Source of the DNA: an uncultured Rikenellaceae bacterium
Lineage (GTDB): Bacteria > Bacteroidota > Bacteroidia > Bacteroidales > Rikenellaceae
Direction: 5' to 3'
Assembly (NCBI GenBank): GCA_910588925.1
Contig: CAJURV010000033.1
Location: forward strand, 1 to 22,449
DNA: 22,449 nucleotides
Shown here: positions 543-22,140 of the stretch, in pieces
Layout of the letters: each line of letters opens with the position of its first letter
How positions within the stretch are numbered: the stretch's first letter is position 1
The notes under the pieces: generated by a model
Database searches by the model: none
Told to the model about the DNA's origin: nothing
Seen by the model: the letters and a program-made list of their open reading frames with translations, nothing else
Program-made: the position numbers and the translations under genes

Positions 543-2135
543 CTATTTCTTAACTATAGGAGCCGCATCGTAATCGAACGACAAGGCATCGATCCACAGT
601 TTCGACCCGGTGGCACCGCAATATCTCTCGCCGTAAACGCTCGACGTGGCTACGAGCACTATATGCGTAGGCTTGATAGTGGTAGTGCGGTACTCGAGGT
701 TTATTACGAACTGCTGGTAGTCGGTAGTAGATGCGTCGGTCTTGAACTCGCCGTACGCTACTATGTCTCTGTCGGCCTCTTTGGGACGTGCCGTGGCTCC
801 GCGCCAGTTCTCCAGATAGATGTATATGTGGCACTTGTCCGTCTCGCCTACATGCTGGGAATCCTCCGGGAATTTGTTCTGATGATATACGTCGATAATA
901 CCCGGCTGATATATGTACCACCCGGAGAGCTTGGCGGGACGACCTGTGAACGGACGCCCGAACTTGGGACTGCTGCCGGGATCCTGGACATTGGTAATGA
1001 AATCTCCGGTAAACAGGTTACCTGCTGCGAGCGGCACCCCTATTGTCACCTTCTTGGTCTCCATATAGGCGGCATACCTGCCCTCCTTTACCTTGTCGGT
1101 GACAGGATAGGTGGCACCGTCGCTCACCATGGCTATACCATCGTTACCGGTAGCCCAATACGGCGCTCCACCTTCGGCGTACGGGAACCAGCAATCGTGA
1201 TTGTTCTTCCTCTTATTAAACCACTCCTCGAAGCTCATATTGGGTATATCCACCACGTCATCGGTGGTGAATGTCTGCTCCTGCCCCCTCTCGTCTCCGA
1301 GGAAAGGACGGCATACGTATTTGGTGCCGGGCTCCAGATCGGTCATCACGGCCGTCATGGTTCCTCCCTCCAACGACACATTGCCTATGTCGGTCTTGGA
1401 CCACACCTCGTCAACATCGCGCCGGTACTCGTAGCCCATCTCCTGATTGGAACCTACGGGCACATCCGCGGTAGCGGTAGCCGTCTTGGTCCACGCCACG
1501 AGGGTCTTGCCGTTGATAGTGAAATTGGCATGCTGGGCCGATACGCGCCACTGCTCCGTACGTCCGAACATGCTCACTTCGAAGACGGTACCGTCTCCCA
1601 AAAGGTCGTATTTACGCTCGTACGGGTCGGGAGTTATCACGGCATTGGCCGGCCCCAGCTCCATCTTGTCTATCCTGACAGACGTAAGAGGCTGCGACTT
1701 GGCCACAGTAACTATCGCCACACGGTTGACGGTATCTATGGAGGCGTTGCCTACCTGATTCTCAACGTTGACGATGTAGTTGACGTCCCATTTGGCGTCG
1801 ATAGTCCACTCGTAATCCTGCCATGTACGCAACGTACAACGGTAGGGACGGGACAGGTTGAGGTTCTCCGGCATTTCGGGCACCATCTCCGTGGAGTCGC
1901 TTATCTCGTAATATATCACCCTCACGTCCGTTATGTCGTGCTCGCCGTCCACAGTGAGGCTTACGGTTCGTTTCACGTTGTCGAACTCGCTTACGCCTAT
2001 CTGTCCCTCCACCTCGAACGCTTTGAAAGAGGGCTGCCTGTTGGGATAGGGTATGTCGTTGACGATACATCCGCCCAACGACAACATCGCCGCAACGATC
2101 GTCACAAGAGTAATGTATCCGTATGCCTGTCTCAT
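543..2135 (-). CDS. Surface lipoprotein with C-terminal PCMD-like domain (paralog 1 of 3)
   Basis: 530-aa ORF. The N-terminus MRQAYGYITLVTIVAAMLSLGGC has a signal peptide and lipobox Cys. The C-terminal ~200 aa (FGRPFTGRP...KPTHIVLVATSSVYG...GSKLWIDALSFD) is clearly homologous to the C-termini of the 700-aa and 723-aa ORFs upstream. An FN3-like strand motif (GTKYVCRPF...QTFTT) precedes it. The ATG overlaps the stop of the upstream gene (ATGA), so it is the last gene of the minus-strand operon. The name PCMD (PF13201) is from memory, not from a search. Confidence 0.8.
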   Translation of the reverse strand: MRQAYGYITLVTIVAAMLSLGGCIVNDIPYPNRQPSFKAFEVEGQIGVSEFDNVKRTVSLTVDGEHDITDVRVIYYEISDSTEMVPEMPENLNLSRPYRCTLRTWQDYEWTIDAKWDVNYIVNVENQVGNASIDTVNRVAIVTVAKSQPLTSVRIDKMELGPANAVITPDPYERKYDLLGDGTVFEVSMFGRTEQWRVSAQHANFTINGKTLVAWTKTATATADVPVGSNQEMGYEYRRDVDEVWSKTDIGNVSLEGGTMTAVMTDLEPGTKYVCRPFLGDERGQEQTFTTDDVVDIPNMSFEEWFNKRKNNHDCWFPYAEGGAPYWATGNDGIAMVSDGATYPVTDKVKEGRYAAYMETKKVTIGVPLAAGNLFTGDFITNVQDPGSSPKFGRPFTGRPAKLSGWYIYQPGIIDVYHQNKFPEDSQHVGETDKCHIYIYLENWRGATARPKEADRDIVAYGEFKTDASTTDYQQFVINLEYRTTTIKPTHIVLVATSSVYGERYCGATGSKLWIDALSFDYDAAPIVKK

Positions 2136-3298
2136 TGCTTTTCCATATTGGTTCTTATCGCCCTCTCGAAATCGTCCTCGGTGGCCTGACGGGCAGATTT
2201 GCGGAACTTGTAGTTGACCGGATTCAAACCTCGCATGGAGTTGATATAGAATGCCATACCGAGATTTATGGAGAAGAGGTCTATCTTGAAGTTGGCCGAA
2301 GTTCGCGAATGTTTACCGGTCTCCACCTGATTGGTTATCTGGTTTATGGTGTTGTATTTCAACCCTAAAACACCCACAGACACCTCCACGCCCACATTAT
2401 CCGTCACAAACGCCACTATACCCGGTGCTAACCCGAGCTGCAGGCTCCGTATCTTCTGGTAGGTACCCTTGACCTCCTCCTTAGAGCTGTTGACGAGCTT
2501 ACCCTGACCGCCGCCGTAGGTAAGACGCGTCTCGTTGAACAGACCTATACGCCTCTGCGTGCCGAGATTGATATAGTTACGTAAGAATAACGAAACATCG
2601 TACTGATGTTGTATATAGGTAAGGTCGTTAATGCCGAAACTAAGGTCGTCGTTGATCTTCAGATTGACGCTCCCAACGTCGGCGGATGTGCGCGAATAGA
2701 CCAAACGCGCGCCTAACGCAGTGTTGTCGGCCACGAAATAACCGATGAACGGACTCACCTTGAACATATAGGCGTCGAGGTTTATATCCTCCACTATCAA
2801 GAACTTATAGTTATCCTCGGTGTAATCCTGAAAAGATATGTTGCCGCCGACGAGCCACTGCCCCTTGGGTACGAACACGATCTGGTCTATCCCTCGGTCG
2901 AACGGATGGCTTCGTCCGCGCATCCAGTTGTTGGCACGCGCCGACTCGCGTTCGGCATAACGCTTGGCACGGTGTTGTTCGTTGCGCTCCTGCAACGGCG
3001 AGGAGATCACGTTACGAATGGTATCTATGCCATACATTCGCTCCTCTATTGCCTTGAGCCTCTGCTCCATCATGCGCGTAAGACTGTCGAGCGACGCCGG
3101 CATCACCGGCACGTAGACCGTGTCTCTGACAGCGACGACACCGGGCTCTTTAGCGCCCTTTACTACGACCGGCACTGAAACCATAGCGGTATCCGAAGCC
3201 ATAATCGATGCCTCCGCCGCCCGACAGATAGCGGGCGACAGAAGCAATATGGCGGCCGTAAGGCCCGTAAGGCCTTTTAGTGATTGCATAAATGACAT
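2132..3298 (-). CDS. Secreted beta-rich protein, putative outer-membrane beta-barrel, unknown function
   Basis: 388 aa. The N-terminal signal peptide MSFMQSLKGLTGLTAAILLLSPAICRAAEA has no canonical lipobox. A charged coiled segment (RLKAIEERMYGIDTIRNV...RAKRYAERESARANN) follows. The C-terminal 250 aa show alternating hydrophobic/polar strand-like segments (YMFKVSPFIGYFVADNTALGARLVYSRT; GIVAFVTDNVGVEVSVGVLGLKY; FKIDLFSINLGMAFYI). It is translationally coupled to both flanking lipoprotein genes (5-nt gap upstream, 4-nt overlap downstream). Confidence 0.55.
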   Translation of the reverse strand: MSFMQSLKGLTGLTAAILLLSPAICRAAEASIMASDTAMVSVPVVVKGAKEPGVVAVRDTVYVPVMPASLDSLTRMMEQRLKAIEERMYGIDTIRNVISSPLQERNEQHRAKRYAERESARANNWMRGRSHPFDRGIDQIVFVPKGQWLVGGNISFQDYTEDNYKFLIVEDINLDAYMFKVSPFIGYFVADNTALGARLVYSRTSADVGSVNLKINDDLSFGINDLTYIQHQYDVSLFLRNYINLGTQRRIGLFNETRLTYGGGQGKLVNSSKEEVKGTYQKIRSLQLGLAPGIVAFVTDNVGVEVSVGVLGLKYNTINQITNQVETGKHSRTSANFKIDLFSINLGMAFYINSMRGLNPVNYKFRKSARQATEDDFERAIRTNMEKQ

Positions 3299-3303
3299 TT
3301 TCG

Positions 3304-5406
3304 TTAATCGAAGAGCAACTCGAACTCGTCGATGTAGAGTGTGCTCCCCTCGCCGCCTATGAAGTCGGCGCCGTACACGCTCGATGTGGCTACGAACACT
3401 ATGTGCGTAGGCTTGATAGTGTTACCCTCGCCGTCTTTCTCAAGGGTGTATTTTATGTCGAAACCACCCTCGGTATATTCAGTGACGTTATCGGCCGTCT
3501 TGAACTCGCCGTAACCCACCACTACAGGGTTCGACGGACGTTCGGAGGTGCCGTCGGGCCACTTCTCGAGACTGATATACACGTGCATTCGGTCAGTCTC
3601 GCCTATGTGCGCATCACCCCTGTTAATGGTAGTAGGCGTATATTTGTAGAAGAAACGCAACCCCGAAGGACGACCGGTATAGGGACGACCGAAATGCGGA
3701 CTATCCTTAGGACTGGATAGGTTGGTCTCAAAATATCCGGTGAAGAGGTTTCCGGCCGCAAAAGTCTTTACGACTACGGCATTGACCCACAGCGACTGCA
3801 TACGTACTCCCCGGCCCTTATATGCTTCCGGCTCGTCTACAGGCGCGGTATTGGAATTGGTCACGATGGTCACTCCGGAGTTACCGGTATCCCAATACTG
3901 ATCCACTCCGTCACCCCACGGATTCCATGTCTTACCGCTCTGGCTCCACGAATCCATATTGAGGTTGGGAATAAGCACGATGTTCTCGGTAGTGAAGCTG
4001 ACCTCGTTGCCCTCTATATCGGCGGAGATCGGACGCACCCTGTATCTGGTATCCGGCTCCAACCCGCGTACGGTAGCGGTAAAGTTCTTACCGTCTATGG
4101 TTATGTCGCTCTCGGGCAAAACGGTCCACGTCTCGTCTGCATCCTTGCGATACTCGAACGTGAGCCCCTCGGGCTGCATACCGGACGTCCACTCGGCCTC
4201 CACGAGAGCGTATTTGGCGAACGCCTCCACCCTCCTGAGGGCAGTGTTGGCATTGGACGAACGTACATTTAGACACACCGTCTGCTCTACTAACTGGCAA
4301 TGGCTGTCGAGCATCATAAGAGTGATATTGTGTTCGCCCGTCTTCATCCCGGCAGTCATACCGCTGAAGTCGATGAAGCCGGAAGAGGTGCCGATACCTC
4401 CCCATCTGAGACCTATGGCATTGAGCGCCGCTACCGTGGCCTCGCCGGCGGTGGTGAGGTTTATGAACTCGGGAAGCCCCTGCGCCACCAGCGACTTATC
4501 GTAGTGAGTGACGTAGAGCAGATCGATACCGGCCTCGGCCTCCACATCTACGCGTGCCGGTACGCTCTCGCCGAACTCAATGAGCGTGAAGCCGTCCATG
4601 TCGAGGTCCGAAGACGAGAACCGCCCCATAGGGCAACGCCCCGGAGTTATCACTATATCGTGGTCGATATCGTCGGTGTTCGGGTCGACGGATATGGACG
4701 AGTGTATGCCGCCGTCGGTTATCTCGCCGCTCTCCGACACCTTGAATGTGAGTATGTAATGCTCTCTGGCCTTTACTCCGGTGATGGTCTTGCGCATCTT
4801 GTAAACAGTCCCCTGCTTGTTGACGAGATTCAATTCCCATGTCAACGAGCCCGGATCCTTGAAATAGCCGGAACGTATCTCCTCCTCCGAGAAAGTAAGC
4901 GAAGCCTTATTGCGGTTATTCTTAACGACAGCCTTATAATAGCTGAACGCCTCGGTGACGCTATGGTCGAAACGCACGCTCACCTTTACGTTGGCTATGC
5001 GGCAAACGAGATTAACCGTCGTAACCTTACCGGTCCTTATCTCGAACGTCTCGCGCCCTACCAGATACGGACTCTCCCAATCGTCGACATCCTTGCCGTT
5101 GGTGGCCACCGCCGTGTAGGTGCCGTTATCCAGCTCTATGACGTCGGGCATATCGTTGCTGTCTTCGAACGACATCACCGCATCGCCCTTCTCATCGAGG
5201 ATCTCCACACGATAAGTGTCCGGATCGGCGGCGTAAGAGACACGTTCCACTACGGATACATCCGAAGTGATACCCTTTATATACAACCGGCCTTTGTTAC
5301 CCACCGTATGCACCGTCGGATCATTGGTACACGAGGCGCACCACACGCACACCAGCGCGGTGATCAGAAGCGCCACACGGCGTCTTATATTGTCGAACGA
5401 TCTCAT
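3304..5406 (-). CDS. Large surface lipoprotein: DUF4493-like N-domain + FN3-like + PCMD-like C-domain (paralog 2)
   Basis: 700 aa. Signal peptide with lipobox (LVCVWCASC). Its N-terminal domain is homologous to the N-termini of the 416-aa and 723-aa ORFs (…NGTYTAVATNGKD…SPYLVGRETFEIRTGKVTTVNLVCRIANVKVSV). An FN3-like motif (TRYRVRPISADIEGNEVSFTT) is followed by a PCMD-like C-terminus (FGRPYTGRP…KPTHIVFVATSSVYG…GSTLYIDEFELLFD). Confidence 0.8.
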   Translation of the reverse strand: MRSFDNIRRRVALLITALVCVWCASCTNDPTVHTVGNKGRLYIKGITSDVSVVERVSYAADPDTYRVEILDEKGDAVMSFEDSNDMPDVIELDNGTYTAVATNGKDVDDWESPYLVGRETFEIRTGKVTTVNLVCRIANVKVSVRFDHSVTEAFSYYKAVVKNNRNKASLTFSEEEIRSGYFKDPGSLTWELNLVNKQGTVYKMRKTITGVKAREHYILTFKVSESGEITDGGIHSSISVDPNTDDIDHDIVITPGRCPMGRFSSSDLDMDGFTLIEFGESVPARVDVEAEAGIDLLYVTHYDKSLVAQGLPEFINLTTAGEATVAALNAIGLRWGGIGTSSGFIDFSGMTAGMKTGEHNITLMMLDSHCQLVEQTVCLNVRSSNANTALRRVEAFAKYALVEAEWTSGMQPEGLTFEYRKDADETWTVLPESDITIDGKNFTATVRGLEPDTRYRVRPISADIEGNEVSFTTENIVLIPNLNMDSWSQSGKTWNPWGDGVDQYWDTGNSGVTIVTNSNTAPVDEPEAYKGRGVRMQSLWVNAVVVKTFAAGNLFTGYFETNLSSPKDSPHFGRPYTGRPSGLRFFYKYTPTTINRGDAHIGETDRMHVYISLEKWPDGTSERPSNPVVVGYGEFKTADNVTEYTEGGFDIKYTLEKDGEGNTIKPTHIVFVATSSVYGADFIGGEGSTLYIDEFELLFD

Positions 5407-5490
5407 TATGATACTCTATTCGTTAATAACCCGAAGCCTTGGCTGACACGTACATGCGCCGCACCGCAGACTCCGAAAAGCCACGCGAGC

Positions 5491-6741
5491 TTAGTCCACC
5501 CTATTGATGGTAAGCGTAGCATTAGCCTCTTCGCCCTTGGCATCCACCAGTCTGATGTGGAATTTATGAACGTTTACGTCGAGCATACTCATGAACGCCC
5601 CAACCGAGAACGATGCGCTGGTAGCTCCAGCGATGGGATCTTCGCCTATAAGACCGAGACCCACGAAACCCTCCTTGAGGTTATCGTCGAGATTAGCTAT
5701 GTCGAAGCTGACGGGAATATTGAAGCTACCGAGTATATCTTCTGTCAGGTACGGCGAATCTATCTCCACGAACAGGTTGGCTATACCCTCCGGAGCGGCG
5801 AAATTAACCACTACCGATGCGCTCGAAGCCTGTGCCGTATTGAACACTAACGGGTTTGATATATTGAAACCTTTACCTTTTATGGTGGGCGCACTACCAT
5901 GCACATCGTCGTCCCACGGATTGTCGATATCGCCGAAATCGCTGCCGTCACCGTCGTCGCCACCCTCCTCGGGCACCGAAACGATATGGTCTTTGTCCGT
6001 CATCGAACCGTCTATCTTGATATTGAAATCGGCCTCGCCCACGCCCATGGCGCTGACATGGAAACGATGCAGCTGGTTGGCCTCGGTCTCGTCTATCATT
6101 ATAGTGTAGGTAAGGAGGCTACCTGTCTTCTTACTGAAACCCTTGGCGGTGACGCTGAGCGGACCCACCGAGAAGAAACCGTACCTCTCCGCACCGTCCG
6201 GCGTGAACACCAATGCGCTCTTTTCAGCACCGGCGTTAGCTTTGGCTATGGTGAGGGTACCGCCGTCGAGCTGCGATGCGAAGCTCTCGTCGAAATCGAC
6301 ATGCACCGCCACGTTATGCAGCTTGCAGAGCAGGTCTACTTCGTTGAGCTGACCGTCGTAAACGCCTATGCGCTCCTCGCCCTTGAAATGAGGACTGTCG
6401 AAACCGGCCAGCTTGACATTGCCGCTCTCGGCCGTTATGGTATAGCTGCCTTTGGCAATCTCCACAACCGGGGGCATATCCGCGTAACGCTCCCATGCGT
6501 AGAGAGCGGCACCGGTGGCGTTATCGGTGAGCGTCACCCTGAAATTATCTATGTCGGCCAATGCGGCGATGGCGTTCTCCTCCTCGGTGGCATAAGTTAC
6601 TATATTGACCCCCTCCGAAGAGAGACCTATCCTAAGGCTAAGACCGTGATCCCCGTCGGGATGCGACATCTCGTCGGTACAAGAGTATATGGATGCTACC
6701 CCTGCCATCACGGCGAATGCGTATGTAAAAATCTTTTTCAT
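5491..6741 (-). CDS. Lipoprotein with DUF4493-like N-domain, an acidic linker and no PCMD domain
   Basis: 416 aa. N-terminus MKKIFTYAFAVMAGVASIYSC. The N-domain motif (GSYTITAESGNVKLAGFDSPHFKGEERIGVYDGQLNEVDLLCKLHNVAV) aligns with the N-domains of the 700-aa and 723-aa paralogs. An acidic low-complexity linker is present (EEGGDDGDGSDFGDIDNPWDDD). Same strand and operon. Confidence 0.75.
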   Translation of the reverse strand: MKKIFTYAFAVMAGVASIYSCTDEMSHPDGDHGLSLRIGLSSEGVNIVTYATEEENAIAALADIDNFRVTLTDNATGAALYAWERYADMPPVVEIAKGSYTITAESGNVKLAGFDSPHFKGEERIGVYDGQLNEVDLLCKLHNVAVHVDFDESFASQLDGGTLTIAKANAGAEKSALVFTPDGAERYGFFSVGPLSVTAKGFSKKTGSLLTYTIMIDETEANQLHRFHVSAMGVGEADFNIKIDGSMTDKDHIVSVPEEGGDDGDGSDFGDIDNPWDDDVHGSAPTIKGKGFNISNPLVFNTAQASSASVVVNFAAPEGIANLFVEIDSPYLTEDILGSFNIPVSFDIANLDDNLKEGFVGLGLIGEDPIAGATSASFSVGAFMSMLDVNVHKFHIRLVDAKGEEANATLTINRVD

Positions 6742-6803
6742 AGTCGTTATATTTTAACGAAATATTTCATGAGGCTCTTGACGGTATCTGTCGAGAAAGC
6801 CCA

Positions 6804-8975
6804 TTAATCCTTTATCTCCGTATATATGAGTTCCACATTATCGACAGTGAGTACATTGCCGATGTATTTGCTGTCTTTGTAGCCCTGAAATGCACCCGCA
6901 GAACCTTTCACTGGATTCACGGACGGGCTGGCAGAAGAGGACGACACGAAAGCTATCTTTATGTGCGTGGTTTTCAAGCGCCTATTATCATAATCGAACT
7001 TAAGTGTCACAGTTTTAAAGTCACCGGCAGGAGTCTTTGCCACATCGGTATCCACCTGCGCACGTCCCAACTCGTTGACCGTACCGTCGGCGGCCCTGTG
7101 CTCCACTATGGCGTATGCGTCGAAGCTCTCGCCGTTTATCTGTGCGAATTTATACGCGAACTTCATTCCCTCGGGACGCGACGGGAACTGACGACCCATG
7201 TTTTCGGTACGACCGGCCAAATCGTAATCGCCTATGAACAACATGCCCGGGGTTATATTTTTCTTTATGCCGTCGGCACCAAATGGGAATGTCGACCCTC
7301 TACCCCAGTTGACTGTGCTTATCTCAGCCGCAAGACCGCTGACACCCTGTGCCGAGCGCGTGCCGGAATATTGGCAATAATAATTCGCCGTACCGGATCT
7401 GTCGCTGGTCGTCAACGCATTGCGCGTATCCCAATATTTGCTTGACGGGTCGTTATAATCGTAAGGGAATACTTCGAATATCTCTATGTTCATACCCGAA
7501 TTTTTGCCGTAGCACATCTGCTCGCTCCACCTCTCGAAGCCGGCATCGGGCACCTGCGCCGCCGTCTCCGTGGTAATGTCGATAGGTTCGCCGAAAGTGT
7601 GACCGTTATAAGCCATTCTCACCCTATAAGAGGTGTTGGGCGCGAAACCCCACGATTTAAGATCGACTCTGTCGCCATCCTCGCTTACAGTACGGCTCTC
7701 GGACAGATCTTCCCATCTGCCGTTTCGGTATATCTGCGTGGAGAACTTGGCAGGATTGGCATCGGCGACGGTGGCCCCGGTCTCTATGTGGGTGGCCCAT
7801 GCGGCGCCCTCGAACGGAAGCCATTCGAACGTAGCCCCGTTGGTTTGAGCCGTGTACACGTCGCTATCTACGCTCTGCCCCAAACCGTCGGTAACCCTCA
7901 GAGAGAAAGCGTGTTCGCCCGCTTCGAGCAAGCCGAGTGTACCGCTCAGATCGACCGTGCCGGAGATATTGTCGGTCATGTCGTCCCATTTCAGAGAGTC
8001 GCGCCGAACTATATTTTTGGTCTGCGTATCTATAGTGAGCAGGTCGAATTCGGCAGGCCATCCGCGTCCGAGCAACGTGGGAGAGTTAACCTTGACTATG
8101 CACTCGCGTATCTGCCCCGGAGCGAATATACCGATGCGGGCATCGTGCGAGAAGCCGTCGGTGTAGGTCACCCTCTTGTCGGCGCCGAAACCTGTGGCCG
8201 TATAGACGGGCGCGGGCTTGGGCGTCATTAACTTGGGTATCTCGAAGACAAGCTCCTTGTCGTCGGTGGAGAGATCTTTGGTTATATCGAGCGAAAAAGA
8301 GCCGTTCTCGCTACGCAAAAAGAGCGTTATATGATCGCCCGGAGCCACATCCTTAATGGTGGGGGGAATATAGACCTTGTCCTCGCCGTCGGCATTGGTG
8401 TAAGAGATGCGGAAACGCACGTCGGCAGGGGGAGCGAATGCCGAACGCTCCTCGTCCGAAGCGAAAGTAAGACGCTGTTCGGAGGTGTAGAGCAAAACGC
8501 TGTAGTCGCTATGTGCAGACTTGAAATCGTCCTCGGCGACCACGGATATGCACACGTTACGGAGCTTTGCCGTGACGGTGACGGGCGTGACCTGTCCGGC
8601 CTTTATCTCCACCGGAGTCTCGCCGTAATAATAGGGTTTGGCAAAGCCTACTTTGGTAGAATCGCCGTAGAAAGCGACCACTTTATGGTTACCGCTACGC
8701 ACCTTGCCGTTACCGATAAGGTCGGAATAACGATTCCATTTCTTAATGAGCGTCTCGCCGGAATATACCAGAAGTCTGAAATTGCCGAGAGTGGTGCCCC
8801 ACGGGTCTATCGCCGCATTAAGATCGCTCACCTCCCCTGAAGAATAAGAGACCAGAGACAATCCTATCTCGCCGTCGAGACCCTCTTTCTCTTGACCGCC
8901 GTTCTCGAACTGACTGCATCCTGCAAAGACCAAGGCCAGAAACGACAGCGATATCAAAGTAAATTTTTTATCCAT
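6804..8975 (-). CDS. Large surface lipoprotein, first gene of operon (paralog 3): DUF4493-like N-domain + FN3-like + divergent PCMD-like C-domain
   Basis: 723 aa. N-terminus MDKKFTLISLSFLALVFAGCSQFENGG has a canonical lipobox followed by a polar/acidic stretch, typical of surface-exposed Bacteroidetes lipoproteins. The N-domain is homologous to those of the 416-aa and 700-aa ORFs. An FN3-like motif (TSYRVRMAYNGHTFGEPIDITT) is present. The C-terminus (RQFPSRPEGMKFAYKF…KTTHIKIAFVSSSSASP…GNVLTVDNVELIY) is a diverged PCMD-like domain. Confidence 0.75.
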   Translation of the reverse strand: MDKKFTLISLSFLALVFAGCSQFENGGQEKEGLDGEIGLSLVSYSSGEVSDLNAAIDPWGTTLGNFRLLVYSGETLIKKWNRYSDLIGNGKVRSGNHKVVAFYGDSTKVGFAKPYYYGETPVEIKAGQVTPVTVTAKLRNVCISVVAEDDFKSAHSDYSVLLYTSEQRLTFASDEERSAFAPPADVRFRISYTNADGEDKVYIPPTIKDVAPGDHITLFLRSENGSFSLDITKDLSTDDKELVFEIPKLMTPKPAPVYTATGFGADKRVTYTDGFSHDARIGIFAPGQIRECIVKVNSPTLLGRGWPAEFDLLTIDTQTKNIVRRDSLKWDDMTDNISGTVDLSGTLGLLEAGEHAFSLRVTDGLGQSVDSDVYTAQTNGATFEWLPFEGAAWATHIETGATVADANPAKFSTQIYRNGRWEDLSESRTVSEDGDRVDLKSWGFAPNTSYRVRMAYNGHTFGEPIDITTETAAQVPDAGFERWSEQMCYGKNSGMNIEIFEVFPYDYNDPSSKYWDTRNALTTSDRSGTANYYCQYSGTRSAQGVSGLAAEISTVNWGRGSTFPFGADGIKKNITPGMLFIGDYDLAGRTENMGRQFPSRPEGMKFAYKFAQINGESFDAYAIVEHRAADGTVNELGRAQVDTDVAKTPAGDFKTVTLKFDYDNRRLKTTHIKIAFVSSSSASPSVNPVKGSAGAFQGYKDSKYIGNVLTVDNVELIYTEIKD

Positions 8976-9407: not shown

Positions 9408-10847
9408 ATGGCAATAACAGACCAGAAATTATCGGGTCAGACGAGAGTCGAACACGACCTGCTCGGCGACAAGAACATTCCCGTCGAATACTATTTCGGC
9501 GTACAGACCATGCGTGCCATGGAGAACTTCCACATCAGCCGCGTAAGGCTCAACATGTACCCCGTTTTCATCAAAGCGCTGGCTATGGTGAAACAGGCTG
9601 CAGCGGAAGCTAACTGCGAGCTCGGCATACTCAAGCCCGAAATACGCGACGCCATCGTGGCCGCTTGTAAAGAGGTGCGCGAAGGCAAGTTCGACGACCA
9701 TTTCGTAGTAGACATGGTACAAGGCGGCGCCGGCACATCTACCAACATGAATGCCAACGAGGTGATCGCCAACCGTGCCCTCGAGCTGATGGGCCACAAG
9801 AAAGGCGAATACAAATACTGCCATCCCAACAACCACGTCAACCTGTCGCAGTCTACGAATGACGCCTATCCCACATCGGTGCGCGTGGCTCTTCTCAACC
9901 GCACCCGCGACCTTGTCGACGCACTCAAGGTATTGGTAGAGGCATTCCGTGCCAAAGGCGAAGAGTTCGCCGATGTCATCAAGATGGGCCGCACTCAGAT
10001 GCAGGACGCAGTGCCCATGACCCTCGGACAGGAGTTCGGGGCATACGCTGCCACCCTGTCTGAAGAGATAGAACGCCTCGAGAACAACGTACGTCTGTTC
10101 CTCGAAGTAAACATGGGTGCCACTGCCATCGGTACCGGTATCAACTCCGATCCCGACTACACCCCCACCTGTATCAAATATCTATGCGAGATCACCGGCA
10201 TGCCTATGGTAGCCGCCGGCAACATGATCGAAGCGACCAACGATACCGGCGCGTTCATCATGTACTCATCGGCTGTCAAACGTCTGGCCGTCAAGCTATC
10301 TAAGATAAGCAACGACCTTCGCTTGCTCTCGTCAGGTCCTCGCACCGGTTTCAACGAGATCAACCTGCCTCCCATGCAACCCGGTTCTACCATCATGCCC
10401 GGCAAGGTCAACCCCGTCATACCCGAGGTAGTGAGCCAGATAGCATTCAAGGTGATAGGCAACGACCTCACGGTAACGATGGCGGTAGAGGCCGCACAGC
10501 TCGAGCTTAACGCTATGGAGCCCATCATTGTGCAGGCACTCTTCGAAAACATCGAAATGCTTATCAACGGCATGAACACACTCCGCGAAAGATGTATCGT
10601 AGGCATCACCGCCAACAAAGAGCGTTGCCGCCAAATGGTTTACAACAGCATAGGTTTGGTTACGGCTCTCAACCCCTACCTCGGTTACGAAGTATCTACC
10701 GAGCTGGCGAAAGAGGCCCTCGAAAACAATAAAGGCGTGTACGACCTGGTTCTCGAAAAAGGGCTCATGTCGAAAGAAGAACTCGACAACGTACTCCGCC
10801 CCGAGAACATGGTAAAACCCCGCAAGTTCATCGGCAAGAACGTTTAA
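9408..10847 (+). CDS. aspA: Aspartate ammonia-lyase (aspartase)
   Basis: 479 aa. This is a fumarase/aspartase-family protein with the GSTIMPGKVNP signature. It aligns along its whole length with E. coli AspA as I recall it (DLRLLSSGPRTGFNEINLP, FKVIGNDLTVTMA, GITANKERC, YNSIGLVTALNP). It is clearly closer to aspartase than to FumC. Confidence 0.9.
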   Translation: MAITDQKLSGQTRVEHDLLGDKNIPVEYYFGVQTMRAMENFHISRVRLNMYPVFIKALAMVKQAAAEANCELGILKPEIRDAIVAACKEVREGKFDDHFVVDMVQGGAGTSTNMNANEVIANRALELMGHKKGEYKYCHPNNHVNLSQSTNDAYPTSVRVALLNRTRDLVDALKVLVEAFRAKGEEFADVIKMGRTQMQDAVPMTLGQEFGAYAATLSEEIERLENNVRLFLEVNMGATAIGTGINSDPDYTPTCIKYLCEITGMPMVAAGNMIEATNDTGAFIMYSSAVKRLAVKLSKISNDLRLLSSGPRTGFNEINLPPMQPGSTIMPGKVNPVIPEVVSQIAFKVIGNDLTVTMAVEAAQLELNAMEPIIVQALFENIEMLINGMNTLRERCIVGITANKERCRQMVYNSIGLVTALNPYLGYEVSTELAKEALENNKGVYDLVLEKGLMSKEELDNVLRPENMVKPRKFIGKNV

Positions 10848-10863
10848 CATCTTTATACATATA

Positions 10864-10915
10864 AATATCGGAGGCTGCATCCTTAAAGAAGATGCAGCCT
10901 CCGATATTTATATGT
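10864..10915. terminator. Intrinsic terminator after aspA
   Basis: Perfect ~17-bp stem aatATCGGAGGCTGCATC / GATGCAGCCTCCGATatt with a 9-nt loop, followed by ttatatgtat, starting 17 nt after the aspA stop. Approximate coordinates. Confidence 0.75.
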
Positions 10916-11137
10916 ATATGGTTGTACCTCCCGGCAGCCACTTGGTGAAGGTGATTTGTCGAGTGGCAAAGTACCAGAAACAATGGACTTTCAGAAGTAC
11001 ACGATATGCAGTAAAGCAAAAAAAATAAAGATGAACACTTTAGTACATCATGCTACTAATTATATACATAATGCGACTCATGAAAATCTAATTATGTTAT
11101 AATTTCGAGACAAAAGGTTCGGCATTTACGCTACCGA

Positions 11138-11188
11138 CTGGCGAGACGATAAAAACACCTCACAACTTCCCAAAGCTATGCGCATTGA
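11138..11188 (+). repeat. Repeat unit I (copy a): CTGGCGAGACG…(C)TATGCGCATTGA
   Basis: A ~50-nt unit beginning CTGGCGAGACG(A/G)TAA and ending with the palindromic core ATGCGCAT plus a T(T/G)A flank. Copies occur at 89-138, 11138-11188, 11271-11320 and 22091-22140. Confidence 0.85.
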
Positions 11189-11270
11189 CTGAAACGCTCT
11201 CGCTCCGTATCAGGAGCGCAACACAAGACTTGCGCTTCTTTAGAAGTGCAAAGTATAGTACACAATTCCG

Positions 11271-11320
11271 CTGGCGAGACGATAAGATACTACAAAATAC
11301 ACTGAAAGTATGCGCATTAA
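11271..11320 (+). repeat. Repeat unit I (copy b)
   Basis: ctggcgagacgataagatactacaaaatacactgaaagtatgcgcattaa is about 85% identical to the copies at 89-138 and 22091-22140. Confidence 0.85.
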
Positions 11321-11549
11321 CAAATACATCCATGCGGCACGGGGTGCCGCTCCGCAATAACCTCCACGAATTAACAGAACAGAGGTTGGGAAACTCCCCG
11401 GCGAAACAAAAAAGACATCGGAGCTTAACGACATGCGCATTAACCGCAAGTCGCAGGCATGCTAGCCCGTGTACACAACTAAAGACCGCAGGGCGCCGAA
11501 GTTTTTTAGACCTCAAAAATCGTCGATCGCGGTCGTGTGCCTCGGAGCG
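11321..11549 (+). repeat. Repeat unit II (hairpin-rich ~230-nt module), unoccupied version
   Basis: Colinear with 22141-22449 at roughly 80% identity. Shared segments include catgcGGCACgggGTGCCgctccgc (7-bp hairpin), acatgcgcattaaccgcaagtcgcaggcatgc, gaccgcagggcgccgaa and tttttagacctcaaaaatcgtcgatcgcgg. This copy lacks the 67-nt insert present in the 22141-22449 copy. Confidence 0.8.
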
Positions 11550-12035
11550 TACTCGATGTACGTGAGGATGGCTCACGAACGGGATCGGCGATTTTTGTGG
11601 CTAAAAAGCGACGGAAACAGCCCCACGTTAACCGAACCTCGCGCACACAAACCGACAATTCATGCGTTCAGAGATCGCGTACTTCCTAAACTTCACTAAA
11701 ACTTCCTACACGTACGACCCGAACCTATAAAATCCCTAACGCGTCCCCGAAGGGGATGCACCTGCACGAGCAATACAAAAACGTCCCCAACAAAAACAAA
11801 CGGTACTAAAGCGGAAACGATATGAACTTCCAACTACACTAAACACAACTGCGAAAGACAAGGCACAGAAAGCAACCTAACAACGACCGACCAAAACGCC
11901 GTAAGGCGTACACGCCCGAGCGAAGTGAGGGGCATAAATACGAACAAGCAGATTCAAACACGCCGTAAGGCGTACTAATGTTAGCAAAAAGCCCGAGCGA
12001 AGCGAGAGCAATCAAACACAACTTCCGCCGTTAAA

Positions 12036-12320
12036 TCCCGAGGCACGAGGGATGAGCGGGCCGGAGCCTCCCCCAACGGAGGCCCGCTTATACGGTTGGT
12101 TATTTATAGTATTTATCGCCTTTTTATATAAAATCACTCTCTCGAATGTCACACTCGAGCGGTCCCCCGCATGCTCCGGCCCTTGTGACGCCGGGCAAGG
12201 TATCGCTAAAATCCATGTAAACCACATAATAATAGGAGTCGTGTCAATTCCATCCGGCGAAAAGTTCAGCTAATGCACATATCGTCAAGATAGAGAAAAT
12301 TCACCGCCCCGCAAACCGTC
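12036..12320 (+). repeat. Conserved ~300-nt stem-rich element, copy B
   Basis: See copy A. Same block order and orientation. A different AT-rich insertion lies between blocks 2 and 3. The element ends about 35 nt before the pgi terminator hairpin. Confidence 0.8.
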
Positions 12321-12352
12321 TGACGAAGACACGAAAGCCCTCATTCTCACCC

Positions 12353-12385
12353 AATAATAAAAAAGGGGGTACCTGCCCCCTATCC
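12353..12385 (-). terminator. Intrinsic terminator of the gpsA-pgi operon
   Basis: On the minus strand, GGGGGcaggtaCCCCC is followed by TTTTTTATTATT, immediately after the pgi stop codon. Confidence 0.75.
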
Positions 12386-12389
12386 TTAA

Positions 12390-13748
12390 CTACCTCCCGG
12401 CTATCCGTTTCTTGAGCTTCTCGCCCTCCTCCTCATAACCGGGCTTATTTAGAAGTGCGAACATATTCTTCTTATACTCCTCCACACCCGGCTGATCGAA
12501 CGGATTGACCTCGATAGCATAACCGCTGATGCCCACCGCTTTTTCGAACATATATATAAGCATACCTATGGTCTCGGCACTTATAGAATCCATCTCCACG
12601 GTTATGTTAGGCACTCCGCCGTCCACATGCGCGAGCATGGTACCCAACTCCGCCATACGGTTAACTTCGCTAAGACGTTTGCCTGCCAGGAAATTGAGCC
12701 CGTCGAGATTGGCCCTGTCGCTTTTTATGACGACGCGCCCCGCAGGTTTACCAACGCTTATGACCGTCTCGAACATTATACGTTCGCCCTGCTGTATGTA
12801 TTGCCCCATGGAGTGCAGGTCGGTGGTGAATACCGCGCTGTGGGGCATGATACCCTTGCCCTCCTTACCCTCGCTCTCACCGTAAAGTTGCTTCCACCAC
12901 TCGGCCATATACTGCAACTTGGGCTCGAACGCCACCAACAGCTCCACCTTCTTGCCCAACTTGGTATAGAGGGCATAACGGGCCGCCGCGTATTGCATTG
13001 CAGGATTATCCTCGAAAGGCACGTCTACAGCCGTAGCCTTCTCCATAGCCGCCGCACCTTTGACCAAACGGGCTATATCTATGCCCGCCACAGCGAGGGG
13101 AAGAAGCCCTACCGGAGTCAGAACGGAGAAACGTCCGCCCACATTGTCGGGAATAACGTAACTTTTATACCCCTCCTTGTCGCAAAGCGTACGCAACGCC
13201 CCGCGCGAACTGTCGGTCACAGCCATTATGCGCGAAGCGGCCTCCTTGCGTCCGTACCTCTTCTCAAGCTCCTCGCGCAACAGACGGAAAGCTATGGCCG
13301 GCTCGGTAGTAGTCCCCGACTTGGATATGACTATCAACGAAAACGACCGCTCCTTAATGAATGCGAGCAACTCGGCCATATAATCTTCGCTGATGTTATG
13401 TCCTGCGAAAAGCACCAACGGCTGACCCTCACTACTATCGAAGGCCGCAAACGTTGGGGTCAAAGCCTCCATTACGGCCTTGGCGCCGAGATAAGAGCCG
13501 CCTATGCCTATCACCACTACCACCTCCGAACAAGCACGCAAGGTATCGGCACACTCCATAATATCGGCGATCTGCTTCTTGCCTATCGACGAGGGAAGTG
13601 TCACCCAGCCGAGAAAATCGCTTCCCCTGCCGTCGCCTTTATGAACGGTACGATTGCATCGCTCCATAAGAGGAGCCAAAGCCGCTATGTCTTTTTTGGA
13701 CACGAATTGCGTGATTCTGTCTAACGATATTCTGACCTTTGTTATCAT
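12390..13748 (-). CDS. pgi: Glucose-6-phosphate isomerase
   Basis: 452 aa. It has the N-terminal architecture typical of Bacteroidetes Pgi (…[15 protein letters not shown]…) with a SIS domain and a PGI family fold. Length and motifs are typical. Confidence 0.85.
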
Positions 13749-14821: not shown

Positions 14822-15142
14822 TACAATAATCTTTTTTGCACACAATGCTCTCGAACACAGGGATTATTAGCCCATGCTATCGGAAACACCGGATACATAC
14901 AACACGGACCGCGGGAAAGATCTTGCGAAAATATCGCAGGCCCCTCTACGCTAAACTATTCTCCCTACAAAACAGAAAGCCCCAAGGTCCGAATTGGTTT
15001 TAAAGATAGGTATTTTATTCCAAGCATGCAAATCGCCAGCTCCGGACGTTGCCTTTCCGACACTTTCGTATGAATAACCGCCTTATTTTCACAGACATCT
15101 CAACCACCGTAGACAAAGCCAGAGCACGATCGCTTTTGCGCT

Positions 15143-15307
15143 CGGCTTATTCGTATCTTTGGCTGTGCCTTAGATACTCCGCCTCGACAAACCCAAACAA
15201 GTTTGCTTTTGTATTCGGCTTATTCGTATCTTTGACTTCGTCTTAGATACTGCGCCTCAACAAACCCAAACAAGTTTGTTTTTGTATTCGGCTTATTCGT
15301 ATCTTTG
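15143..15307 (+). repeat. 2.3 tandem copies of a 73-bp repeat, each carrying TTTG…TATCTTTG promoter-like motifs
   Basis: The unit cggcttattcgTATCTTTG-(n)-cttagatact-cgcctc-acaaacccaaacaaGTTTGyttttgtatt occurs at 15143-15215, 15216-15288 and 15289-15307 (partial). Each unit carries a TAnnTTTG -7 motif about 21 nt downstream of a TTTG, which is the Bacteroidetes sigma-A architecture. It lies ~130 nt upstream of the hydrolase ATG. The first 13 nt (tgcgctcggctta) are shared with the small hairpin element family. Confidence 0.7.
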
Positions 15308-15348
15308 CACCTGCATGCAACGGAAAAACGTTCGCTTCGATGCAGATG

Positions 15349-15414
15349 TTTTCTCGCCCCGGCAATCGAAACTTCGTTTCATTGCGCTCGGCTCATCGAA
15401 AACGTCAGCTTTAT
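15349..15414 (-). repeat. Small hairpin element copy (reverse orientation) in the hydrolase 5' region
   Basis: gttttctcgccccggcaatcgaaacttcgtttcattgcgctcggctcatcgaaaacg is the reverse complement of the 22329-22395 copy at about 90% identity. The internal hairpin GAAAC-UUCG-GUUUC has a UUCG tetraloop. Confidence 0.75.
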
Positions 15415-15437
15415 TTCGCAGTCGCATCAAAACAGAT

Positions 15438-16757
15438 ATGAACCGTATTTTAGCCATTCTTTTACCGCTCGTGGCGATATGTTCCGCCCGGGCCGCCGAC
15501 CCCGCCGATCCGGCCGCTCTGCGCAAAGCGACCGAACGTAAAATAGAGAACTACCTTATGCAAGGCGTCGCAGGACGGTATTTCCCCGGAGGGCAGTTGG
15601 TGATAGGGAACAAAAGCGGCGTCATATACTCTACGAGCGTAGGTTCGTTCGACTACAGCGGAGGGCGCAAAGTAACCGACACCGACCTGTACGACCTTGC
15701 CTCGGTAACCAAAGTGATGTCCACGACCTTGGCCGTCATGACCCTTTACGGAGAGGGGCGCATAAAGCTCTCCGACAGGTTGGGGAGCCTGGTTCCGCGA
15801 TATAGCGGCAGCGCCGTAGCCGACATAACCGTACGCGACATGCTACGCCACACCTCCGGCATGAAACCGGTGATATACGTATGCGAACTGACATGCAGGC
15901 CTATAGCCGACTCCGTAAAGCTATTGAGCGCCAAACGCGACTCTCTGCACACCGTGGCCGTAGACGCCTCCACATACGTGGTAGACACATTCGTTTACGA
16001 CAACCGATACGTAAGCGCCACCCCCGACAGTACCACCCTGTTCGACCTCTCGCCGAGGTTATGGGTGCGTCGGTCCCTGCTCTCGGCCATCGACTCTGCC
16101 GTAGTAGCCTCCTATCAACCTGAACGACGCGGACGTTACCGATACAGCTGCCTCAACTTCTATCTGCTGCAACAAGCCATAGAGGAGCTTAGCGGAGAGA
16201 CGCTCGACAAATTCGCAGGTTCGATATATCGACGCATGGGGCTCACCCGCATAGGCTACAAACCGTTGGAGTGGAGCGACATAGGCCAGATAGCCCCCAC
16301 CGAATACGACCTGCTCATGCGACACGACACCGTACGCGGCTATGTACACGACGAGATGAGCGCCTCGCTCGGCGGGGTATGCGGCAATGCGGGACTATTC
16401 GCCGACGGACTCGACGTAGCCTCGCTATGTCAGATGTTCCTGTCCGGCGGCAGATGGAACGGCATGCAGATAATAAAACCGGAGGTGTTGCGTCTGTTCA
16501 CCTCGGAACAGATGTCTCCCTCGAGCCGTGTCACCCGCGGACTCGGTTTCGACAAGCTGAAAACGGAGCCTTACAGCACAGCCTCTTACGGCCACACGGG
16601 CTTCACTGGCACCTATTTCTGGTGCGACCCGTCCATAGATCTTTATGCGGTATTGCTAACCAACGGCGTCTACCCGTCGCGAATAGACAAAACCATAGGC
16701 GGCAGTTATCGCAAACGGATATGGGAACTGGCCAAAGAGTTGAGGAAAATACAATAA
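15438..16757 (+). CDS. Serine hydrolase (class C beta-lactamase/esterase family), exported
   Basis: The start is reassigned to the ATG at 15438 (MNRILAILLPLVAICSARA signal peptide). The 5' extension in the track runs through the tandem repeats and is spurious. The protein carries the S-x-x-K active-site motif (ASVTK) and C-terminal HTGFTGT, both typical of the beta-lactamase/transpeptidase fold. Confidence 0.8.
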   Translation: MNRILAILLPLVAICSARAADPADPAALRKATERKIENYLMQGVAGRYFPGGQLVIGNKSGVIYSTSVGSFDYSGGRKVTDTDLYDLASVTKVMSTTLAVMTLYGEGRIKLSDRLGSLVPRYSGSAVADITVRDMLRHTSGMKPVIYVCELTCRPIADSVKLLSAKRDSLHTVAVDASTYVVDTFVYDNRYVSATPDSTTLFDLSPRLWVRRSLLSAIDSAVVASYQPERRGRYRYSCLNFYLLQQAIEELSGETLDKFAGSIYRRMGLTRIGYKPLEWSDIGQIAPTEYDLLMRHDTVRGYVHDEMSASLGGVCGNAGLFADGLDVASLCQMFLSGGRWNGMQIIKPEVLRLFTSEQMSPSSRVTRGLGFDKLKTEPYSTASYGHTGFTGTYFWCDPSIDLYAVLLTNGVYPSRIDKTIGGSYRKRIWELAKELRKIQ

Positions 16758-18248: not shown

Positions 18249-18360
18249 ATTCGATAGATCGCACAATATCACACGCGTTTTTCGCTTCGGGCAATCGAAA
18301 CCCATTTTAGTTGTACAAACCTCTCGTCACATATAATTTTAAACGTTGAATTTCATTCTA

Positions 18361-18420
18361 CATTTTCTCGCCTCGGCATAACCAAATTTCATTTGCTTCT
18401 GCTCTCGGCTTACCGAAAAC
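18361..18420 (-). repeat. Small hairpin element copy (reverse orientation)
   Basis: cattttctcgcctcggcataaccaaatttcatttgcttctgctctcggcttaccgaaaac is the reverse complement of positions 1-57 at about 93% identity. Confidence 0.8.
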
Positions 18421-18441
18421 GTTCGTTTTTATGCAGAAGTT

Positions 18442-18497
18442 TTCGATAGACCGGGCGCAATGAAATTAAGTGTCGATTGTATTCGGTTTATCGAAAA
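18442..18497 (+). repeat. Small hairpin element copy (+ orientation), diverged; forms an inverted pair with 18361-18420
   Basis: ttcgatagaccgggcgcaatgaaattaagtgtcgattgtattcggtttatcgaaaa. The two copies face each other across a ~20-nt spacer (gttcgtttttatgcagaagtt). Confidence 0.6.
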
Positions 18498-21982: not shown

Positions 21983-22090
21983 GTGATTTTATTCTAGTGC
22001 CGTAATAAGTTGGGATTTTCTTGTCGGTATTTCATATAGACTATTCAGGGGGGACGTTGTTTTGTTGTTCGACAAAGACTATGTTTTCGG

Positions 22091-22140
22091 TTGGCGAGAC
22101 GGAAAGATACTATAAAACACACTAAAGGTATGCGCATTAG
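22091..22140 (+). repeat. Repeat unit I (copy c)
   Basis: ttggcgagacggaaagatactataaaacacactaaaggtatgcgcattag. Confidence 0.85.

Follow-up and report, generated by a model that had tools for sequence, protein, structure and literature searches.

The stretch of DNA analysed here, called the window throughout, comprises 22,449 nt of contig CAJURV010000033.1 (positions 1 to 22,449; assembly GCA_910588925.1) from an uncultured Rikenellaceae bacterium. Two convergent genes of the window, an aspartate ammonia-lyase gene (positions 9408-10847, plus strand; protein identical to MCX4359218.1) and a gene of the phosphoglucose isomerase family (12390-13748, minus strand), are separated by a gap of 1.54 kb. 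This gap harbors a tract that is rich in A and C and poor in T and G on the plus strand (11613-12022). The repeat to which this tract belongs is modular, has terminal inverted repeats, and is present in many copies; the tract forms its conserved non-coding interior and is not specific to this locus. The gap also contains a very long AT-rich hairpin (10847-10925; 35-nt arms, 91% complementary) directly after the stop codon of the aspartate ammonia-lyase gene. This hairpin is not a member of the repeat family and is probably the terminator of that gene.

The base composition of the plus strand between 11580 and 12030 was A 0.368, C 0.290, G 0.202, and T 0.140. Values of A 0.40-0.45 together with T 0.07-0.12 were confined to 100-nt windows between about 11750 and 11950. 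The figures of about 45% A and 10% T that a sequence-only reading of the window had given for 11580-12030 thus apply to this inner part and not to the whole range. The asymmetry itself is real, since within the 22.4 kb the A+C content peaks in the 450-nt window that starts at 11601 (0.673 compared to a mean of 0.517 with a standard deviation of 0.039), which is about 4 standard deviations above the mean. The opposite strand showed no comparable asymmetry, and its best 450-nt window reached a G+T content of just 0.593. Positions 11580-11612 are part of a palindromic hairpin that contains G and T, and the skewed part proper extends from about 11613 to 12022. The skew is strongest at 11620-11900, where the C/G ratio amounts to 1.9-2.8 over about 280 nt and lies at or above the 95th-99th percentile of the window.

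A repeat search recovered two GNRA hairpins (ACGCC-GTAA-GGCGT, ACGCCGTAAGGCGT) on the plus strand with a spacing of 64 nt, at 11896-11909 and 11960-11973, close to the positions of about 11890 and 11962 that had been given for them. The second hairpin is located in the second unit of an internal tandem duplication (11893-12033, plus strand). What had been described as a 62-nt direct repeat is indeed a repeat, but not a clean 62-mer: the units have lengths of 64 nt (11893-11956) and 77 nt (11957-12033), are identical at 51 of 61 aligned positions, and differ by a 13-nt insertion in the second unit. The GCCCGAGCGAAG(T/C)GAG boxes of the duplication are spaced by 77 nt. The duplicated segment (11920-11980) is kept in only about 60% of the family copies and is missing in about 40%. 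A further hairpin inside the tract, GCGTCCCC-GAA-GGGGATGC (11741-11759, plus strand), showed no variation at all in seven of its eight pairs.

Repeat search and self-BLAST revealed three copies of the composite repeat in the window (A, B, and C), all on the plus strand. Copy B (11131-12316) contains the tract and represents the full long form with three 5' units, a core, a 3' module, and a degenerate 3' terminal repeat, as mapped by self-BLAST, cross-genome alignment, and the positions of the terminal boxes. Copy A (89-454) is a short form, in which the 5' terminal repeat is fused straight to the 3' core hairpins and the 3' terminal repeat; about 700 bp including the whole tract are missing, and the junction lies between GGCACG(A/G)GG microhomologies, so that this form goes back to a deletion by microhomology. 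At the copy A site of strains L002, L003, and L006 a long form with the tract is present (88% identity). Copy C (22086-22449) is cut by the end of the window, carries a small hairpin element at 22319-22389, and continues in L001 (11424-12735), where it includes the A/C-rich tract and has 83.5% identity to 11272-12087 over 836 bp.

Contigs of related strains were fetched by using the exact sequences of the flanking proteins. For a wider sample, a spurious 169-aa open reading frame (ORF) that was called inside copy C served as protein query; it returned 56 clusters of equally spurious ORFs (P0001-P0056, 98-273 aa), and contigs were fetched for eight of these clusters. Since a T-poor strand has few stop codons, gene callers predict long ORFs in the element. 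Searching 315 kb of sequence from Rikenellaceae genome bins and mouse-gut contigs with nhmmer and 11600-12040 as query resulted in 37 core matches at at least 15 distinct sites. All 37 matches have a similar composition (A 0.37-0.42, C 0.28-0.34, G 0.14-0.20, T 0.11-0.16). The sequence-only reading had named the lack of a comparable tract in other copies of the composite repeat as part of an outcome that would speak against it; this was not what we found, as other long copies carry the tract as well. The family makes up 10-12% of those loci that were not picked for carrying the element (window, L002, and L006) and 18-25% of the other loci. A metagenome scan with the end pattern gave 41 loci, 27 of which truly carry the element. 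The related contigs derive from the mouse-gut metagenome PDYJ01, and many short-read contigs terminate within the element. Many strain assemblies (L004, L005, L008, L009, L011-L014) break or differ in structure at position 12144 in the 3' module, and in L004, L005, L008, and L009 the segment 12144-12188 is present twice, about 350 bp apart. A search of a genome collection with the 19-mer ACGAGGGATGAGCGGGCCG listed six matches, all of them chance matches in unrelated GC-rich genomes. The same 19-mer had no match in viral contigs, and a distant BLAST search with the element gave no match in PLSDB plasmids or in INPHARED phages either.

The element occurs in a 137-bp form that consists of the ends only, in short deletion forms of about 370 bp, and in the predominant long forms of 1.0-1.3 kb. 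Its 5' end is composed of box b1 (GGCGAGACG), a spacer of about 25 nt, and box b2 (TATGCGCATTA). The ends are imperfect terminal inverted repeats: the 5' end GGCGAGACGG...GGTATGCGCATTA is mirrored by the inverted 3' end TAATGCGCATACC...CCGTCTCGC, and the inverted boxes at the 3' end read TAATGCGCATACC...CCGTCTCGCAAAC. In copy A these boxes are found at 91 (b1), 127 (b2), 408 (b2'), and 443 (b1'); in copy B the 3' side is degenerate. The 5' end is built from tandem units of about 130 nt that bear b1 and b2; their number ranges from one to three, and copy B has three of them with a unit spacing of 132-133 nt. The outermost unit (11131-11263) has b1 GGCGAGACG at 11140-11148 and b2 TATGCGCATTG at 11177-11187. 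Copies A and C have a 5' end that is homologous to the second unit (11264-11395; b1 at 11273-11281, b2 at 11309-11319). The third unit, together with the start of the conserved core (11396-11496), has a degenerate b1 GGCGAAACA at 11399-11407 and b2 at 11432-11442. All three units, like the 3' hairpins and the 3' module, are given for the plus strand. The simplest form was found in L031 (474-617), where two 55-nt inverted ends match over their full length with about 30 nt between them; its hairpin fold has a z-score of -8.2. This minimal form has a MITE-like architecture (MITE, a miniature transposable element with inverted repeats), and the long forms are the same ends with cargo.

Conservation was determined from an alignment of 14 non-redundant full copies, and a larger harvest for the analysis of covariation again gave 14. 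Conservation climbs to 0.9 from 11440; the core starts at about 11433 and has a length of about 570-600 nt. It comprises an imperfect palindrome of about 110 nt (11497-11612, both strands; CTCAAAAATCGTCGATCG...CGATCGGCGATTTTTGTGG) with an A-tract, a GC-rich stem, and a T-tract and with 38-nt arms that are 79% complementary. The palindrome reads A5-stem-T5, which is kept in 12-14 of the 14 copies. Its stem pairs are invariant in 13-14 of 14 copies (conservation 0.96), and its apical loop (about 11553-11556) varies freely (CGAT, CCCC, CGGT, CAAC, CAAT). According to RNAalifold, the tract is enclosed by a 9-bp long-range helix on the plus strand, the 5' strand of which (AGCG-CGGAA) is located at 11607-11616 and the 3' strand (TTCCGCCGTT) at 12023-12032. 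In this helix 98.4% of the alignment cells are paired, and apart from one C-G to U-G change it is invariant and gives no evidence of covariation. Two conserved hairpins, ATCCC-GAGGCACGA-GGGAT and GAGCGGGCC...GGCCCGC, follow at 12035-12087. The second one is common to long and short forms, and its 22-mer GGCACGAGGGATGAGCGGGCCG is identical in copies A and B. The remaining part (12088-12316) is a variable 3' module that ends in the inverted terminal repeat, in which b2' TAATGCACATA occupies 12271-12281 and b1' is degenerate (CACCGCCCCGCAAAC, 12303-12316).

The column consensus of the core (11440-11915 and 12010-12070) was 0.9-0.96, compared to 0.6-0.8 for the ends. The invariant columns of the tract are more skewed than the tract as a whole (A 0.46, C 0.31, G 0.14, T 0.09). 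The tract's minority variants are rich in T, and the most common change is C to T, which indicates that present mutation erodes the skew rather than making it. We concluded that the whole family has the skew in common, that conserved positions carry it, and that it is neither a local adaptation nor the result of mutational bias. The earlier suggestion that the tract is not typical DNA and is under some constraint is supported insofar as the skew is kept in all 37 homologous copies and is strongest at the invariant columns, and thus belongs to a conserved sequence and is no local noise; a family-wide constraint is plausible. The core would be kept uniform through conversion among the copies, through selection, or through a combination of the two. 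A comparison of orthologous sites for selection is confounded, as copies have been replaced by paralogues.

Copies of the element are reshuffled by homologous recombination. Copy B is just 85-87% identical between strains that have flanks with 99.9% identity. The copy adjacent to gidB is 82% identical between genomes with 97-99% identity at the third codon positions of the flanks; here, a paralogue replaced the copy. A comparison of L023 and L024, which come from genomes with 94% identity, revealed a synteny break inside an element copy (about 5081-5246 in each): the right flank with gidB is common to both, and the left flank harbors LGT in one case and two genes without known function in the other. 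This break shows that element copies act as recombination breakpoints. The orientation of neighboring genes was tallied manually from the gene calls that were supplied with the loci. The element was located between convergent genes in 4 cases and between tandem genes in 10 cases (5 in the same and 5 in the opposite orientation), and never between divergent genes. All tallied copies are intergenic, and each of them adjoins the 3' end of at least one gene.

The small hairpin element in copy C is a second repeat with a length of about 71 nt (TTTTCGGTAAGCCGAGCGCA...TGCCGAGGCGAGAAAA), which occurs in the window at 1-58, 15349-15405, 18360-18417, 18433-18479, and 22319-22389. Three independent copies of the large element carry it at the identical point (GGGCGC^CGAAG, equivalent to 11496/11497), namely at 22319-22389 of the window, in L027 (4518-4854), and in L030 (4963-5305). 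This point is empty in copy B, and the small element is also missing from L026, an orthologue of L030 with 98% identity. It is flanked by CGAA(C/G) on both sides. In view of the insertion at the same point in three independent copies and the absence from L026, the small element looks separately and recently mobile with site specificity. The copies at 1-58 and 18360-18417 form an inverted pair (58 nt with 95% complementarity) that delimits a polymorphic inversion of about 18.3 kb among the strains: compared with the window and L001, strains L002, L003, and L006 have the PCMD/DUF4493 gene cluster in reverse orientation and next to holin-like genes. This cluster (543-8975) consists of five paralogous genes (DUF4493 and/or PCMD domains, plus a beta-barrel-like protein), has internal DNA repeats (e.g., 629-684 and 3369-3424 with 91% identity), and probably encodes a family of surface lipoproteins or fimbria-associated proteins. 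Another repeat, three tandem 73-nt units with 76-78% identity (15116-15334), is located just upstream of and extends into the start of an ORF of the beta-lactamase family (15276-16757), for which gene calls vary by strain (267, 439, and 480 aa).

We also analysed on which strand the tract may act. Two readings had been proposed, an unstructured C/A-rich plus-strand RNA with GNRA hairpins and a G/U-rich RNA from the opposite strand. Weak but consistent signals favored the first one. GNRA loops were present in 17 of 17 distinct hairpin instances, and the variants GCAA, GGAA, and GUGA all belong to the GNRA class; as 4 of 12 possible single substitutions would keep a GNRA loop, the probability of this retention is about 0.04. 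The fold z-score relative to shuffles was -4.1 for the plus strand and -1.7 for the minus strand. In the closing helix, the sole variant reads as a U-G wobble on the plus strand. The tract itself, a segment with more C than G, is predicted to be mostly unpaired on this strand, with pairing probabilities of 0.23-0.44. The helices of the plus strand are nearly invariant, and six two-sided pair changes were mostly seen where two copies carry non-homologous 3' sequence. The G/U-rich minus-strand RNA did not find support, as its predicted pairs are no better than column shuffles. The same applies to the idea that the tract is a platform for an RNA chaperone: RbpB has a reported in-vitro motif GUAGGAUA, and its main ligands are the FopS small RNAs (sRNAs) (PMC11697453).

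The palindrome has the layout of a bidirectional intrinsic terminator, with a GC-rich stem-loop and a T-run on each strand, and may act as such. Its stem is atypically long (about 35-50 bp with mismatches), and the terminator consensus scan did not list it for this reason. The scan for sigma-70 promoters and terminators revealed nothing above the shuffle expectation inside the element. An Rfam search over the whole window at the gathering score returned just a tRNA, and the matches in 10700-12500 at E <= 10 were only spurious ones of microRNA models to the unrelated hairpin at 10847-10925.

The reading that explains these data best is that the element is a high-copy, modular, MITE-like repeat, that the tract is its conserved non-coding cargo, and that the core possibly functions as a transcription stop. 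We assign a probability of about 0.5 to it; the identity of the element is well supported, and the function is put forward as a hypothesis. The copies may have been spread by a transposase that recognised the b1/b2 ends in trans, although no such enzyme was found. If the tract acts, it most likely acts as plus-strand RNA, namely as a long, unpaired, G-poor segment that sits directly behind the bidirectional terminator hairpin. A rut region, the loading site for Rho, is a C-rich, G-poor, unstructured stretch of RNA of at least 80 nt with frequent YC (pyrimidine-C) dimers. Palindrome and tract together might form a self-contained transcription stop that combines intrinsic termination with a possible Rho-loading segment. 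Such a stop would let the element sit at gene ends without disturbing the neighbors and would explain why it is tolerated there.

Several observations weigh against parts of this reading. No target-site duplication was found at about 10 two-ended copies or at the minimal form, no b1/b2 end was accompanied by an autonomous partner or transposase in the related sequence covered (about 400 kb) or in any of the 41 metagenome loci and the strain contigs, and no clean polymorphism of filled versus empty sites was seen among the copies compared; the argument for mobility is therefore one of architecture alone. As the helices do not vary, there is essentially no covariation. A search for the conserved Bacteroidetes promoter (TTTG...TAnnTTTG, strict and relaxed) on either strand of the 14 aligned copies was negative, and no U-tract terminator follows the 3' hairpins. 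The number of YC dimers (5-14 per 80 nt) is average when compared to the background mean of 10, the high conservation of the primary sequence exceeds the needs of a rut site, and the tract is dispensable at the copy A site. The even split of orientations relative to tandem neighbors (5 with and 5 against) argues against a strand-specific role in read-through. Random orientation, average YC density, and excess conservation together count against the proposed transcription stop. With regard to conservation, the periphery of the element is a mosaic, in which the number of units varies and 3' modules of alternative types occur, and the difference between core and ends therefore partly reflects non-orthologous alignment. 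Since exchange between copies is frequent, gene conversion could also homogenise the core without selection. Finally, any A/C-rich ancestor would drift towards T and G, and so T-rich variants are no proof of selection.

Among the alternatives, we take most seriously that the repeat is the same and the tract has no function, i.e., that it is passenger DNA, an accident of the founder frozen in the family and kept uniform by recent spread and gene conversion. This inert passenger is possible and a serious rival: conversion or replacement between copies is demonstrably frequent, copy A has lost the tract without obvious consequence, and the lack of a conserved promoter and of covariation as well as the random orientation relative to the neighbors would be expected. 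It does not easily account for a core that is best conserved even where the outer modules differ (e.g., L021, 9055-9541), for hairpin loops that vary within the GNRA class alone, for a large palindrome whose apical loop is free to vary and whose stem is not, or for a skew that is concentrated at invariant columns, and an accidental stretch of 400 nt that is 4 standard deviations off the local composition still needs an origin. The preservation of the GNRA loops, the fold z-score of the plus strand, and the high conservation of the primary sequence would also fit a family of genes, present in many copies, that encode a trans-acting non-coding RNA on the plus strand and for which the inverted-repeat element is a mere vehicle. 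Such an RNA would be 0.5-0.65 kb long, would start near 11433 or 11613, and would use its A/C-rich body with GNRA and GAA hairpins as a protein platform or act as a sponge for G/U-rich RNA. The unpaired tract is closed by a conserved helix, the 3' strand of which marks the 3' limit of core conservation, and sponge RNAs and sRNA families, FopS among them, are also known in many copies. We nevertheless consider this gene family unlikely, as it has neither a conserved promoter nor a canonical 3' terminator, lacks any Rfam match even at E <= 10, and has a terminator-like palindrome upstream of the tract, where transcripts from the 5' units would stop before reaching it. Moreover, no published C/A-binding protein of Bacteroidetes was found, and RbpB prefers G/U/A motifs. 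A broader version, which is likewise unlikely, is that the core of about 570 nt, the palindrome and the helix-closed A/C-rich segment studded with GNRA hairpins, is an undescribed functional RNA module of gut Rikenellaceae that is present in hundreds of copies on a MITE-like vehicle, either as an insulator (terminator and Rho-loading segment) or as an abundant sponge or platform RNA. To our knowledge, the phylum Bacteroidota lacks Hfq, ProQ, and CsrA.

A functional G/U-rich, structured RNA from the minus strand, entering from the 3' module and ending at the palindrome, is very improbable. The palindrome with its T5 run would also terminate transcripts of this strand, a convergent gene at the 3' end of 10 of 15 copies could read into the element, and more pairs are predicted than for the plus strand (101 versus 56). 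By no measure, however, does the structure surpass that of column shuffles (of 500 shuffles, 45 to 383 attain the observed values), the fold z-score is the -1.7 given above, and no conserved minus-strand promoter was detected. The hairpin loops would read UUAC, UUGC, UUCC, and UCAC on this strand, which are not known to form a class of stable tetraloops. It is hardly credible that the tract codes for a protein in hidden form or did so until a recent decay, even though gene callers predict ORFs of 120-230 aa in some or many copies. The variable columns show no periodicity of three (75/67/65), 64 of about 108 indels have a length of 1 nt, no frame is open in all copies, and most copies have stops in every frame. 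The claim that the composition is unlike that of coding DNA was confirmed by these data. The homologues of the predicted ORFs have no Pfam domains except for one seemingly incidental match, and no small ORF is conserved beyond the default expectation from 95% identity. We can give equally little credence to the suggestion that the tract goes back to an array of small hairpin elements that has decayed, which was based on the loose resemblance of GCCCGAGCGAAGCGAG to the reverse complement of CTCGCCTCGGC. A profile of five copies of the small element reached 0.5 bits in the tract, compared to 3.5 bits in shuffled tracts, and the same profile recovered every true copy in the window (E 1e-13 to 1e-22); at this sensitivity the suggestion is refuted. 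BLAST with a word size of 7 revealed no similarity. In addition, the tract is unique sequence with 90-96% conservation between copies and not a degenerate array, and intact small elements enter the large element as discrete units.

If the family really accounts for about one tenth of these genomes, it helps to explain the poor assembly of Rikenellaceae bins, in which contigs break inside the element. Its copies drive rearrangement, as seen from synteny breaks within the element, copy replacement, and deletions. The family also constitutes a large layer of unannotated sequence that is mis-translated as hypothetical proteins, with at least 56 clusters in public protein collections that are annotation artefacts. 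The post-transcriptional machinery of Bacteroidota is still poorly understood, and a strand-skewed conserved core beside a terminator-like palindrome is a candidate for a dispersed transcription insulator or for a function at the RNA level. If the core is inert, it is still a useful marker and calls for caution in the annotation of these genomes.

With respect to its class, the element is MITE-like or similar to a mobile insertion cassette, and we did not assign it to any named family. Like MITEs, which are non-autonomous elements, it has terminal inverted repeats (the 5' and 3' boxes, and the 55-nt ends of the minimal form), no coding capacity (no periodicity, frameshifting indels, and stops in all frames), and many dispersed copies (37 core matches at at least 15 sites in 315 kb). 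It departs from classical MITEs in that neither a target-site duplication nor a partner with matching ends was found. MITEs are usually smaller than about 0.6-1 kb; the minimal form (137 bp) and the short forms (about 370 bp) are within this range, and the predominant long forms measure 1.0-1.3 kb. In L021 (1900-5000; GCA_018263615.1), a truncated copy of the element abuts the central fragment of a DDE transposase of the IS4/IS5 type, which adjoins a chloramphenicol acetyltransferase gene and PcfJ/PcfK genes; the gene content suggests a region similar to a conjugative transposon. We rejected the transposase fragment as a partner of the element, as the contact is a truncation junction or scar.

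No description of this repeat family was found in the searchable literature on Bacteroidales, Muribaculaceae, and Rikenellaceae. Of the elements described so far, BrickBuilt of Porphyromonas gingivalis (PMC4596501) comes closest, and the likeness is one of architecture only. BrickBuilt is a MITE-like, strictly intergenic element that is composed of a leader, internal repeats, and a tail and has small inverted ends (Klein et al. 2015, PMC4596501). In many of its copies one end is missing, duplications of the target site are either inconsistent or not seen, and no transposase remnant is present; repeat numbers vary and sites are stable across strains, with 19 copies per genome, and bidirectional promoters were shown experimentally (PMC4596501). 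Both elements are from Bacteroidales, intergenic, and composite with inverted ends, degenerate copies, and trapped internal sequence. The interior of BrickBuilt is a 23-nt minisatellite, whereas that of the Rikenellaceae element is a unique, skewed, and conserved core of about 600 nt. The ends (GAGACCTTCGCA / TGAAAGGTCTC in BrickBuilt, GGCGAGACG...TATGCGCATTA here) are unrelated in sequence. The Rikenellaceae element accounts for about 10% or more of the sampled sequence, in contrast to 19 copies per genome, and no promoter motif was found in it, unlike in BrickBuilt.

Mobile insertion cassettes have inverted ends of the insertion sequence (IS) type that flank cargo other than a transposase, normally protein-coding. 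Like these cassettes and long MITEs, the Rikenellaceae element has inverted ends around a passenger, no transposase, and forms with and without cargo (1.2 kb versus 137 bp in L031). It differs in that the cargo is non-coding, and neither a target-site duplication nor a parent IS was found. The pneumococcal BOX elements (boxA, variable boxB, boxC) and the intergenic mosaic elements of Neisseria are likewise modular, have lengths of 100-300 bp, and contain no long skewed core. They share with the Rikenellaceae element variable units, an intergenic location, the potential to form hairpins in transcripts, and the role as substrates for recombination. They are shorter and without a skewed core, and no relationship in sequence is expected. 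The FopS/GibS family of Bacteroides thetaiotaomicron, which is present in Rfam, consists of short sRNAs that have promoters and Rho-independent terminators of their own (PMC11697453). They resemble the present family as a multi-copy non-coding family of Bacteroidales, and FopS has a functional single-stranded segment; the Rikenellaceae core, with about 600 nt, is without an Rfam match, and no promoter was found for it. As for the two termination signals that the core may combine, the palindrome has the layout of intrinsic terminators, with an A-tract, a GC-rich stem, and a T-tract, and its stem is unusually long. The tract is similar to rut regions in having more C than G and a predicted lack of structure over more than 250 nt on the plus strand, but it is A-rich instead of pyrimidine-rich and more conserved in primary sequence than such sites require. 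What is unusual in this family is its abundance and its conserved, skewed core.

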